DNA of 64,000 bases from an uncultured Candidatus Rokubacteria bacterium (GTDB lineage Bacteria; Methylomirabilota; Methylomirabilia; Rokubacteriales; CSP1-6): NCBI GenBank assembly GCA_963789955.1, contig CAWBMV010000022.1, positions 32,001 to 96,000 on the forward strand, in the 5' to 3' direction. Shown piece after piece: positions 55,242 through 58,730 of this stretch. The notes under the pieces are model-generated. The model was not told where the DNA came from. It was given only the letters and a program-made list of their open reading frames with translations, and searched no databases. The position numbers and the translations under genes are program-made. How positions within the stretch are numbered: position 1 is the first letter of the stretch; each line of letters starts with the position of its first letter.

Positions 55242-55451
55242 CTACGAGGCGGCCGAGGCGCCGGTCGCCGGAGCTCCGACCGCCGCGTGGCTGCCCTGCA
55301 GCTTCCGTCCGACGTTGATCAGCGCAAGACCGAGCGCCACCCGGAACGGCGGCCGTTGCCGCACCGAGCCAGCCAGCTGCTCGCGCACCATCGCGGCACG
55401 GATCTCGTCCAGACGCTCCTTGGCCCACCACTCCACCAGATACACGTTCAT
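55242..55451 (-). CDS. Small hypothetical protein (about 69 aa)
   Basis: MNVYLVEWWAKERLDEIRA...ALGLALINVGRKL; ATGA overlap with the upstream ORF. Confidence 0.55.
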   Translation of the reverse strand: MNVYLVEWWAKERLDEIRAAMVREQLAGSVRQRPPFRVALGLALINVGRKLQGSHAAVGAPATGASAAS

Positions 55452-55861
55452 GTCCATGACACCGATCTCCCTCTCGGCGTCGCCGCCGGAACCGTCATGG
55501 GGATTCGTCGTGGTACGGGTTGCTCCTGCGGCGTCAGCACGATCTCGAAGTGCCGCGGGCTCGTCCGCTCCGCGGTGCTGAAGGCGCGGTACGCAGCGCT
55601 CAGCACCTGCATGATCGTGTCGGGCCGATCGAGCGGCACCGGGATCGAGAGCCGCCAGCCCCGCCCGAGCTTCCGGCGCACCACCGGCGACACGACGGCG
55701 CCGAGCTCCGCGTGGATCGCGTCGGTCACCGCGATCTGGCGCGCGATCTCGGCGAGCCGCACGTGCTGCCGCCAGTTCGAGATCTTCAAGGCCGCGATCA
55801 GCAGTCCGAATGGGAACAGCGCCACCAACAGCGACAGCGTGCCAAGCGTTACGGATTGCAT
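55448..55861 (-). CDS. Hypothetical protein with an N-terminal TM helix
   Basis: GGGAGG RBS; RQIAVTDAIHAELGAVVSPVV. Confidence 0.6.
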   Translation of the reverse strand: MQSVTLGTLSLLVALFPFGLLIAALKISNWRQHVRLAEIARQIAVTDAIHAELGAVVSPVVRRKLGRGWRLSIPVPLDRPDTIMQVLSAAYRAFSTAERTSPRHFEIVLTPQEQPVPRRIPMTVPAATPRGRSVSWT

Positions 55862-55927
55862 GTCGACCTCCCCTTCTGCTCCCTATGACACCGCGGGGAG
55901 GGCGGCGTGAAAACGACGAGAGAAGTG

Positions 55928-56899
55928 CTAGGCGGCGAGCGGGTGGAGATCCGGCCGGCAGCTCGTACAGGGGACGAGGCCGAGCGAGCCGGCGAGCTCG
56001 CGCGACGCCAGCAAGGTGACAGGCCCGATCGGACGGCGCGCGATGTCGCCGCACGTCGGCAGGCAGTACTCGTGCTGGTCGTTGCGCTCGTAGTGGTAGA
56101 GCGTGTTGCGCGCGACTCGCGAAGCGCCACGCTTGCCCATCGCCTGGATGCCTTCGACGGCGAGGAGCTGCTGCTTGAGCCCGACCTTGTCGCCGGAGTA
56201 GCCGGTGAGCGCGCCCGAGGTTCCGATGATGCGGTGGCAGGGCACCACGATCGGCAGCGGGTTCCAGCGCAGGGCCTGCGCGACGGCGCGCGTGGCCGCC
56301 GGCTTGCCGATCTCGGCGGCGATGCCGGCGTAGGACGTGACGGCGCCGTAGGGGATCGCGGCGGTCGCGCGGAGCACCGCGCGGTGGAAGTCGCTGCGCG
56401 CCAGACGGAGGTCGAGCGGCCACTCCAGGCGCGTGCGGTCGCCGCGCAGGTACTCGAGCAGCTCACGATAGAGCGTCTCGACTTCGGCGCCGTCCTCCTG
56501 CAGATCGACCCCGGCGACCCGGCCGAGCCGGGAGGCCTTCACATCGGCGCGGCCGTGCAGATATTCGACGAGCGACACGCCGTGCTCCGAGCGCGCGATG
56601 AGAATGTGTCCCAGCGGCGACGGGAACACCCGGTACGACACCAGCCGCGATTTCAGGTCCGCCAGCTTCGACTCGAGACCCTCGCGCGCCCGCGCCGCGC
56701 TTTCCGCCCCCGCCGGCGTCCGCCGGAGCGCGCCCACGACGCCCTCGATCTCGCGATAGCGGTGGAACTCGCCGCGGCATGCGCCGCAGGAGTCGATGTG
56801 ATGCTCGACCCGCCGCGCGGTCGAGGGCTCGGCGTCGCCCGTGGCCGCGGCGATGAGGTCGGGTTCGATCTCGAGGCACACTCGTGCTTTGCGCGTCAT
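55928..56899 (-). CDS. Fusion of zf-HC2 anti-sigma domain, O6-alkylguanine-DNA alkyltransferase and Ada-type Zn-binding domain
   Basis: HIDSCGAC (HxxxCxxC), IPYGAVTSY, RAVAQAL..NPLPIVVPCHRII, C-terminal YCLPTC...PCTSCRP. Confidence 0.85.
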   Translation of the reverse strand: MTRKARVCLEIEPDLIAAATGDAEPSTARRVEHHIDSCGACRGEFHRYREIEGVVGALRRTPAGAESAARAREGLESKLADLKSRLVSYRVFPSPLGHILIARSEHGVSLVEYLHGRADVKASRLGRVAGVDLQEDGAEVETLYRELLEYLRGDRTRLEWPLDLRLARSDFHRAVLRATAAIPYGAVTSYAGIAAEIGKPAATRAVAQALRWNPLPIVVPCHRIIGTSGALTGYSGDKVGLKQQLLAVEGIQAMGKRGASRVARNTLYHYERNDQHEYCLPTCGDIARRPIGPVTLLASRELAGSLGLVPCTSCRPDLHPLAA

Positions 56900-57477
56900 C
56901 GCGGTCGCTCCATGCCGAACGGGCTGGTCTCGGCAGGCGATGCCCGCCTTTCGACGCCTCCGGGGGCCGGAAGCTCGTGACCGTTGAGACTCAGCCGGAT
57001 CTTGCGCAGGGCTTGAAAGACGTGCGCCCGTGCGCTCTCGGCCGAGCAGTCGAGGCTTCGGCCGATCGCTTCGTAGTCGAGATCGTGGATCTTGCGCATG
57101 ATGAACGCCAGGCGCTGCTTGAGGGGAAGGCTCTGGACGGTGCTCTCCACGAGCGTTCGGGCCTCGCCGAACCGCGCCTCGTCCTCCGGTCCCTCCAGAT
57201 CGGCTTCGCGGCTCTCCACCGATACGGCCTGGTGGGCGACCCGTCGGCGTTTTTCCGACCGGAAATGATTGCGACTCAGATTGGTGGCGATCGCGAAGAG
57301 CCACGCCCGCACGTTGGCGTCCGGGCTCAAGGTTCGGTAGGCCCGATAGGCCCGGAGGAACGTCTCCTGGGACAGGTCTTCCGCCTCCGTCGGTCGAGAG
57401 GTGACTCGTCGGAGGTAGCGATAGATCTCGCCGTGATGCGCGCCCACGATCGTCTCGAACGGTTGTGCACCCATCAT
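56896..57477 (-). CDS. ECF RNA polymerase sigma factor
   Basis: AEDLSQETFLRAY, WLFAIATN, LPLKQR.AF, YEAIG..L....ESARAHVFQALRKIR; ATGA overlap with the downstream gene. Confidence 0.9.
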   Translation of the reverse strand: MMGAQPFETIVGAHHGEIYRYLRRVTSRPTEAEDLSQETFLRAYRAYRTLSPDANVRAWLFAIATNLSRNHFRSEKRRRVAHQAVSVESREADLEGPEDEARFGEARTLVESTVQSLPLKQRLAFIMRKIHDLDYEAIGRSLDCSAESARAHVFQALRKIRLSLNGHELPAPGGVERRASPAETSPFGMERPR

Positions 57478-57547
57478 CTGTGAAAACACCGCCGGAGCCT
57501 GGTTGTGAAAACCTCCGGCGGGCTCAGCACATGATAAGGTATTCCGC

Positions 57548-58730
57548 GTGAGCGAGATAGCCGACGTCGTCGTCGTCGGAGGCGGGGTCAACGGCGTGAG
57601 CATCGCGTATGCGCTCGCCGCGCGAGGCGTCGGGCGCGTCGTGCTCTGCGAGCAGGCTGCGCTGGCCAACGGCGCCTCCGGGCGCTCGAGCGCGCTCGTC
57701 CGCATGCACTACACCAACGAGTGGGACGCGCGTCTCGCGTTCGCCAGCTTTCCGATCTTCCGCCATTGGCCCGAGATCATGGGCGGGCCGTCCGTCTTCA
57801 CGCACACCGGATTCGTCAACGTCGTCGCCCCGCCAGTACGCCGACGCGCTCCGGAAGAACGTCGAGATGCTGCGCGGCATCGGCGTGAATACCGTGGCGA
57901 TGACTCCCGGCGGGCTCCGCGATCTCCAGCCCTTCGCCAACGTCGATGACATCGGCGCCGCCGCGTGGGAGCCCGAGAGCGGGTACGCGGATCCGGCCAC
58001 GACGGTGGATGGATTCGCGCGCCGGGCGTCCGAGCTCGGCGCGCAGATCCGCCAGTGGTCTCCGGTCCGGACGATCCTGCGCCGCGAGAGTCGTGTGATC
58101 GGTGTCGAGACGAGCGCCGGGCGCATCGACGCCGGTGCCGTCGTCGTGGCCGCGGGCGCGTGGGCTCCGCGGATCTGCCGCGAGATCGGGATCGAGCTTC
58201 CGGCACGGCCGAAAGGGATCGACACGGTGCAGGTCACACGCCCGCGGGCGCTGGCGCAGCCCCACGTGATCTTCATCGACAACGTGCTCGGTACCTACTT
58301 CCGGCCCGAGAGCGGCATCCGCACGATCGTCGGCGTGCCGTGCCAGGAGTGGGATCTCGATCCCGACGCGCCGATGGTGCTGGCGCCGAGCGCGCCGAGC
58401 GTCGGTGCCCAGATGTTGACGCACCGGATCCCGGCCATGGAAGGCGCCACGCTCGCGCGCGGCTATCGCGCCGTCGATTGCTATAGCCGCGACCGACACG
58501 CGATCCTCGGACGCGTGGACGGCATCGACGGCCTCTATCTCGCGACCGCGTTCAGCGGCTCGGGCTTCAAGATCGCGCCCGCCGTGGGCGTGTGCATGGC
58601 CGAGCTGATCGTGGACGGTCGGGCGAAGACGGTCGACATCGACGCGTTCAGTCTCCGGCGGTTCGCCGAGGGGAAATCGCCCGAGGGACCGTATCCGTAC
58701 GCGATCCGGCGCGACCACACCGACCGTTGA
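57548..58730 (+). CDS. FAD-dependent oxidoreductase, DAO/sarcosine oxidase family (frameshift near 57830)
   Basis: VVVVGGGVNG, GASGRSSA, EPESGYADP, VAAGAW, FSGSGFKIAPAVG. Confidence 0.88.

Follow-up and report, generated by a model that had tools for sequence, protein, structure and literature searches.

What controls a sigma factor whose gene overlaps that of a DNA alkyltransferase, and could the repair enzyme itself be the regulator? This question is raised by a locus in a stretch of 64,000 nucleotides (the window, to which all positions refer unless another record is named) from an uncultured soil bacterium of Candidatus Rokubacteria (GenBank assembly GCA_963789955.1, contig CAWBMV010000022.1, positions 32,001 to 96,000). 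There, the minus strand encodes a sigma factor of the extracytoplasmic function (ECF) type with 193 amino acids (56896..57477) and a soluble fusion protein of 323 amino acids (55928..56899) that joins a zinc-binding anti-sigma (ZAS) domain, an O6-alkylguanine alkyltransferase (AGT) and a zinc module of the Ada type. An earlier note, made from the sequence alone, had proposed that methylation of either of two acceptor cysteines releases the sigma factor, as an alternative adaptive response with a domain order rearranged relative to Ada. Anatomy and genomic context strongly support that the module is a form of class I anti-sigma control, in which sigma release would follow alkylation of the AGT.

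The sigma factor matches Sigma70_r2 and r4_2 of Pfam, both above cut-off, and its TGA stop codon shares the four bases ATGA with the start codon of the fusion gene. The fusion contains no transmembrane stretch (top 19-residue hydropathy of 1.18). Its N-terminus is matched by zf-HC2 at residues 8-42 (24.2 bits, cut-off 22.2) and has a zinc site of spacing Cys-x25-His-x3-Cys-x2-Cys, whose ligands (C8, H34, C38 and C41) are invariant in all 49 aligned fusions. The AGT (residues 86-251, 56147..56644) comprises both domains, Methyltransf_1N (88-164) and DNA_binding_1 (170-251), with TIGR00589 also above cut-off. Its active-site motif PCHR (residues 220-223, 56231..56242) contains Cys221, the proposed alkyl acceptor and sensor, and P220-R223 (with C221 and H222), Y190, R204, N213 and E249 are again invariant in the 49 fusions. 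The AlphaFold model of the fusion (mean pLDDT 88) superimposes on the AGT 4zye over 152 residues (Z 17.6, root-mean-square deviation (rmsd) 1.9), so that by residues and fold the AGT is likely intact, and alkyl transfer is predicted. An AraC helix-turn-helix (HTH) is absent, as neither HTH_18 nor HTH_AraC of Pfam matches the fusion at E up to 1, and in the model the other parts account for all 323 residues. The overlap with a soluble protein, the HxxxCxxC zinc motif, the intact PCHR and the missing AraC domain had all been read correctly by the earlier note.

Its assignment of the C-terminus to the Ada methylphosphotriester-repair site held for the cysteines and the fold, and not for the profile or the basic residues. 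The module (residues 263-318, 55946..56113) carries four cysteines (C279xxxC283...C311xxC314), invariant in the 49 fusions, but scores 14.1 bits with Ada_Zn_binding over residues 278-317, under the cut-off of 23, so that, of the three families listed in that note, Pfam finds zf-HC2 and DNA_binding_1 and leaves this third one below threshold; relatives reach 49 bits. The window protein reads CLPTC and PCTSC in place of the Ada consensus CRPSC and PCKRC (PMC10779285) and has a net charge of about 0. The residues of E. coli N-Ada that are lost comprise TT (acidic here), CRP, R43/R45 and K70/R71, with a mean net charge of -0.5 in Rokubacteria; more of them are retained in distant relatives. The link to Ada thus rests on the fold, the cysteine pattern and the relatives, because the C-terminal 60 residues, compared by sequence with the Protein Data Bank, gave no match at E up to 10. 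The structural matches of this module to N-Ada (1u8b, Z 6.8, rmsd 2.0, 54 residues) and of residues 4-83 to the anti-sigma factors ChrR (Z 8.0), RslA (Z 6.9) and RsiW (Z 5.7) are middling, and weigh only jointly with the motifs.

The ZAS part forms three helices (residues 6-60, 56720..56884) and is joined to the AGT by a further helix, which the earlier note had not described (residues 65-85, 56645..56707; helix 4 in anti-sigma terms), and which in the model leads, with no linker in between, to the first strand of the AGT; its leucines L75, L79 and L82 are each at least 90% conserved. Modelling of ECF residues 1-168 with the full fusion, the check suggested in that note, gave an ipSAE of 0.75 in three runs (best of three controls 0.00; the mark used was attained in 116 of 157 complexes of solved structure and in 2 of 215 mismatched pairs, counts that are roughly valid with the alignments used), a score that measures likeness to ZAS-sigma complexes and not binding, because similar complexes have already been solved. 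The runs share at least 93% of their contacts, with a partner pLDDT of at least 85. In the modelled interface, sigma region 2 lies on helix 65-85, through L75, L79 and L82, and region 4 on the ZAS helices, in agreement with class I anti-sigmas, where helix 1 sits on sigma4 and helix 4 on the core-binding surface of sigma2 (PMC7406223). AGT residues 134-139 also contact the sigma factor; no residue of the Ada-type module is named in the interface, which is no proof that contact is absent. By motif, fold, ECF coupling and predicted complex, the N-terminal 86 residues thus look like a class I anti-sigma domain, as the earlier note had supposed.

The pairing is conserved. Near full-length matches to the fusion were found throughout the family and order of the host among 201 genomes of the phylum, and the nearest named relatives belong to Rokubacteria and Methylomirabilota. 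Fifty-six three-domain loci were inspected, 30 from these genomes, 20 picked for spread and six from another search (the own locus and two apparent duplicates included). An ECF gene lies directly upstream in all 54 with upstream sequence, the other two being at contig edges, and overlaps the fusion gene by four bases (ATGA or GTGA) in 46 of the 54. Among the best 150 representatives of a search of 1.8 billion proteins, with domains counted by pattern, nine combine ZAS, AGT and Ada-Zn, 27 ZAS and AGT (about six being frameshifted or truncated three-domain genes), 14 AGT and Ada-Zn without ZAS (some of them fragments) and 66 have the AGT only, while 34 show no in-frame PCHR.

A metagenome set, drawn from one sixty-fourth of the collection and made up of the best 80 of 596 AGT loci, contains 28 AGTs with an ECF directly upstream. 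All 28 bear an N-terminal extension (19-88 amino acids), 11 with a ZAS and 17 without, and none of the 31 extension-less AGTs with at least 600 nucleotides upstream is preceded by an ECF. The 52 ECF-less loci also comprise 11 with long apparent extensions that resemble wrong start picks and were kept out of the count, seven with a ZAS or helix near contig edges, one canonical Ada and a short one with too little room. In an actinobacterial-type AGT of this set (L204), a relative of which at 78% is labelled Streptosporangiaceae, the extension aligns with residues 74-85 of the window fusion. Because the ZAS and the Ada-type module vary while the helix or extension stays, the constant core is an N-terminal helix and an AGT coupled to an ECF; on this distribution the ZAS and the Ada-type module are optional parts, and the rearranged domain order of the earlier note is a misleading description. 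Outside Methylomirabilota, the range is drawn from contigs of metagenomes, the labels of Atlas clusters and two plasmid records; in a plasmid search, the window ECF found only matches of 25-34% identity.

Two actinobacterial groups of the ECF classification, ECF122 and ECF203, have an O6-methylguanine methyltransferase at position +1 and, in the available part of that work, no putative anti-sigma factor (Casas-Pastor et al., 2021; PMC7826278). ECF122 is described there as 100% Actinobacteria, with the promoter CTCAC / CGTCTAC, a description echoed in PMC8999054, and no tested member is named in the supplement text of PMC7826278. For ECF203, Ada_Zn_binding domains are mentioned in the neighbourhood and control is ascribed to a TetR repressor (PMC7826278). 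In a tree of 55 ECFs, with a small outgroup made up of other ECFs of the genome and two more lineages coupled to AGTs, the window ECF groups in a single clade with 33 ECFs whose AGT partners have a ZAS or the helix only (100/99; the bootstrap had not fully settled). A quick rerun without three long branches also placed the ECFs of Rhodococcus antarcticus and an Arthrobacter inside this clade (SH-aLRT 99). The Rhodococcus locus carries, before its ECF, an exact CTCAC...CGTCTAC and the order ECF, extended AGT, 2-oxoglutarate (2OG) oxygenase and separate Ada_Zn gene; that of Arthrobacter reads ogt, ECF, extended AGT, AlkB-type oxygenase and Tag; related TCAC motifs stand upstream of many distant ECFs. 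The ZAS-less AGTs of ECF122 type keep a helix homologous to the predicted sigma-binding helix.

The window thus shares with ECF122 the methyltransferase at +1 and has its ECF in a clade with ECF122-like sigmas, but differs in its Rokubacteria host and in a +1 protein that combines a full ZAS with an Ada-type module. The candidate promoter is similar in part: it has the same TCAC core, and a -10 element, GG(T/G)GT(C/T), that is related to CGTCTAC and different from it. With ECF203 it shares the methyltransferase and a nearby Ada_Zn_binding domain, whereas ECF203 is confined to Actinobacteria, under TetR control and without a recognised anti-sigma, and the window host is not an actinobacterium. 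Judged by these features, the window system is a relative of ECF122 that would work like it, but it is not assigned to that group.

In AGTs of ECF122 type (L204:2420-3043 and relatives), the helix often reads RLHE or RLHD, a likeness, maybe coincidental, to the RLHD motif named in Cada2 (PMC10957082). The own genome also encodes a second ECF whose gene overlaps that of a ZAS-less AGT-Ada_Zn protein (G000:C34:968624-969794, L157). This ECF falls in a separate clade and is conserved across the phylum, with a 2OG oxygenase or HhH-GPD glycosylase gene following in some loci, and the coupling of AGT and ECF may have arisen more than once. In genomes of one family (f6), AGT-Ada_Zn genes with a shortened N-terminus (L058-L062) have no ECF found upstream and are possibly relics left after loss of the sigma factor.

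What the sigma factor would transcribe is suggested by a promoter-like motif, TTTCAC-N14-GG(T/G)GT(C/T), also new relative to the earlier note, which occurs twice in the window (0.01 matches expected). One copy (TTTCAC-N14-GGTGTT, 57485..57510, minus strand) ends 7 nucleotides before the ECF start codon. The other (TTTCAC-N14-GGTGTC, 55887..55912, minus) precedes a likely co-regulated gene for a 137-amino-acid protein with one N-terminal hydrophobic segment (55448..55861, minus). In 52 of 53 loci the motif stands upstream of the ECF (one base off in the exception; 0 of 53 in the reversed control); it ends at most 12 nucleotides from the ECF start codon in 48 of these 52, and in 41 of the 53 it also closely follows the fusion gene, so that the ECF transcript is likely leaderless and autoregulatory, as far as motif position can tell. 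The own genome has five exact sites, each 7-38 nucleotides before a gene: the ECF, the 137-amino-acid gene, the second ECF, one gene of DUF2652 type and one of DUF1706 that is coupled to a separate ogt.

In 15 further genomes, chosen for having the module, 81 sites were found (2 in the reversed control) and 77 were examined. The cognate ECF follows 15 of them, the linked small membrane gene another 15, and related small genes elsewhere six; 18 lead to DinB-superfamily genes (17 by Pfam and one by likeness, four of them followed by ogt), two directly to ogt, five to DUF2652 genes, one to the second ECF and five to others, and ten lack a plausible target. Counting the own genome, 7 of 16 genomes have the motif before ogt or before a pair of DUF1706 and ogt genes, two arrangements being seen, and the candidate regulon is thereby supported as including alkylation-repair genes. 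DUF1706 is the family of the colibactin detoxifier ClbS, and thiol S-transferases are among the members of the DinB superfamily (PMC10693628). In two genomes the motif stands before genes for proteins of about 190 amino acids (L113:857-1432 and L154:913-1500), which look alike and match no Pfam or NCBIfam family.

A mechanism that brings these observations together, and that we regard as probable, is that the fusion loses stability when Cys221 is alkylated and thereby releases the sigma factor to transcribe from the motif, with autoregulatory resupply closing the loop. The unmodified fusion is predicted to clamp the ECF, with region 4 held by the ZAS helices and region 2 by helix 65-85. As known for the family, the AGT would then irreversibly move the alkyl group from O6-alkylguanine to Cys221. 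Alkylation destabilises AGTs and breaks their interdomain contacts (PMC10779285); the alkylated domain should therefore be less stable and open between its two domains, and this opening, or later proteolysis, would dislodge the sigma factor, because helix 65-85 enters the first strand of the AGT without a linker. The free ECF would transcribe its own operon, the gene of the small membrane protein, genes of the DinB/DUF1706 kind and, in part of the genomes, a separate ogt, until fresh unalkylated fusion recaptures it, and therefore the circuit would gauge the rate at which the repair protein is consumed. An accessory role would fall to the zinc site of the ZAS and to the Ada-type module. A precedent for the signal is found in Caulobacter, where methylation of the PCHR cysteine activates Cada2 (Kamat et al., 2024; PMC10957082).

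Several observations weigh against this mechanism. Its genomic basis is weakened by the kin genomes in the locus counts, which are not independent, and by a helix-bearing AGT of ECF122 type (L178) without an ECF in the 2.5 kb upstream. The complex score, as said, speaks of likeness and not of binding, and the coupling of Cys221 to the interface would be indirect, because no residue of the catalytic domain (166-251) is named there, although a residue that goes unnamed may still be in contact. The five exact motif sites of the own genome all stand before genes other than alkA, alkB and adaA, so that the motif was rejected as a mark of the whole classical adaptive regulon in this genome. Sites before DinB-superfamily genes (18 of 77) outnumber those with ogt first (2 of 77), and a thiol or electrophile signal would fit them too. 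Finally, ten genomes that lack the three-domain gene (five of them checked to lack the cognate ECF too) contain ten motif sites in about 37 Mb, with six in the reversed control. Because of these sites, none of which precedes ogt or DinB and one of which precedes the small membrane gene, some unlinked sites are probably due to chance, and another sigma factor may share the motif.

The alternative that survives best, although we consider it unlikely, places the sensor in the zinc thiolates of the ZAS, as in RsrA and ChrR: oxidants or electrophiles, alkylators included, would eject the zinc, and the AGT would be a repair payload delivered together with the regulator. Soluble ZAS proteins are often redox sensors (PMC7406223), the four ligands are invariant in the 49 fusions, and the commonest unlinked targets of the motif are the DinB-superfamily genes just mentioned, with their thiol S-transferase kin. 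Against it, the 17 of 28 ECF-coupled metagenome AGTs that lack a ZAS motif are nevertheless coupled and extended, most of the ECFs of ZAS-less partners share the clade of the window ECF, which leaves the AGT and not the zinc site as the constant part, and the zinc may be structural, as in RsiW (PMC7406223).

That the C-terminal Ada-type module is the sensor seems improbable. Cys279, the equivalent of Cys38, would take the methyl group of a methylphosphotriester, and the resulting switch in charge would release or remodel the complex. Cys38 is indeed the switch in E. coli Ada (PMC10957082, PMC10779285), the fold matches N-Ada, a separate Ada_Zn gene stands in the Rhodococcus operon, and the four cysteines are invariant in the 49 fusions, with cysteine as first ligand; in contrast, a protein of the same genome that by eye resembles a Tat subunit at its N-terminus (G000:C7, L161:1495-1659, minus) ends in an Ada-Zn-like module in which the acceptor cysteine is replaced by histidine. 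However, the module is missing from most ZAS-AGT relatives and from the AGTs of ECF122 type, has lost the TT, CRP, R and K-R residues with a mean charge that is slightly negative in Rokubacteria, scores under the Pfam cut-off and is unnamed in the predicted interface. Because the module is optional and without the basic residues of Ada, the proposal of the earlier note that either cysteine may act as the signal is doubtful.

Very unlikely, in our judgement, is a non-covalent signal, in which the N-terminus inhibits the sigma factor and the AGT, by binding lesion DNA in the manner of an alkyltransferase-like (ATL) protein, pulls the complex apart. AGTs do bind damaged bases and flip them (PMC10779285), residues 134-139 of the AGT N-domain touch the sigma factor in the model, and PSHR replaces PCHR in one distant representative (P0127), but Cys221, His222 and Glu249 are invariant in all 49 cognate loci, and an ATL-type gene with PWHR (C17) exists separately in the genome. 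We give hardly any weight to a conditional co-activator, loosely like Cada2, that stays on the sigma factor or the DNA when alkylated and helps the holoenzyme to fire: Cada2 is activated through its PCHR cysteine and contacts RNA polymerase (PMC10957082), and the DNA-binding HTH of the AGT is unnamed in the predicted interface, but the model covers the sigma2 surface that binds core polymerase in class I complexes, and the fusion has no sequence-specific DNA-binding domain.

With Cys221 alkylation as the favoured signal, the system can be set beside known ones. The class I pairs ChrR-SigE, RslA-SigL and RsiW-SigW resemble it in the zinc site, the helical fold, the predicted dual interface and a gene placed right after that of the sigma factor; in them the sensory role belongs to a cupin, to a transmembrane segment or to the zinc site alone, whereas here it would belong to a suicide DNA-repair enzyme. 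E. coli Ada and AdaA resemble it in the two alkyl-acceptor modules of one chain, in the proposed autoregulation by self-methylation and in ogt-type targets, but the fusion has no AraC HTH, its output would be the release of a sigma factor instead of the binding of an activator, and its Cys4 module is C-terminal, optional and without the basic residues. Cada2 has in common with the proposal the methylation of a PCHR cysteine as regulatory signal, but is a sequence-specific activator, and in the available part of the article the word sigma appears only in the reference list (PMC10957082). A canonical AdaA (Ada_Zn at 100 bits and an AraC HTH) is encoded on the same contig (G000:C22:about 616000-616770, L159:1354-2121). 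Because the genome has this AdaA and the second ECF with its ZAS-less AGT-Ada-Zn partner, the circuit would run parallel to the classical one, a word that fits better than the alternative response announced by the earlier note.

The pairing of ECF and ogt is already catalogued. No report of an alkyltransferase as anti-sigma factor was found in the open literature, a search that did not include the original ECF122 paper (Huang et al., 2015), and the group tables of PMC7826278 may bear on the point. Texts of 2023-2024 on SOS-independent and adaptive responses describe, in the parts available, methylated activators, Ada and Cada2 (PMC10957082, PMC7617703), and no mention of an ECF or anti-sigma factor was found in the accessible portion of the 2023 review of SOS-independent responses (PMC7617703). 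We lean, with some reserve, towards a wider claim: that a third widespread adaptive response exists beside Ada and Cada2, in which a suicide alkyltransferase is the anti-sigma factor and its consumption frees the ECF, that ECF122 is its minimal version, with a single helix on Ogt as inhibitor, and that the DUF1706/DinB proteins of Rokubacteria may destroy natural alkylating toxins of soil. If so, an anti-sigma factor that counts DNA lesions by its own consumption would represent a different logic with a built-in shut-off, and a gap in the ECF classification, the control of ECF122 (and perhaps ECF203) without a recognised anti-sigma, would be filled. The motif, the targets, the key residues and the cultured hosts (Rhodococcus antarcticus and Arthrobacter sp.) make the proposal directly testable, and the pair could act as a genetically encoded alkylation sensor.

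Some other readings of the locus were discarded. Long open reading frames (ORFs) in other frames (for example 55928-57304, 458 amino acids) and the database proteins P0105, P0112 and P0182, with out-of-frame N-termini, were considered as ECF-AGT fusions, and none has a Pfam sigma domain. Contigs of four metatranscriptome runs span both genes; they are mute on strand, start and level, and were not taken as evidence of expression.

Downstream, the gene of the 137-amino-acid protein, which matches no Pfam or NCBIfam family, is overlapped by an ORF of 71 amino acids (55242..55457, minus) that is kept in relatives and matches no Pfam family when scanned from its second methionine; this membrane-anchored protein and the small ORF (55242-55861, minus) make up a pair specific to the lineage, paralogs of which also lie under the promoter-like motif. 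The flanking genes scanned with Pfam encode a FAD oxidoreductase, a PNPOx-like protein and hydantoinases, with no TetR or MFS protein among them. The gene of the FAD-dependent oxidoreductase is divergent (57548-58730, plus) and split by a frameshift near 57832, which is likely an assembly error or strain-specific, because contigs of three soil runs are without one base there. A GATACCTTATCATGT-like stretch (57530-57545), conserved about 20-30 nucleotides upstream of the ECF motif in loci of the same genus, is probably the housekeeping promoter of this divergent gene.

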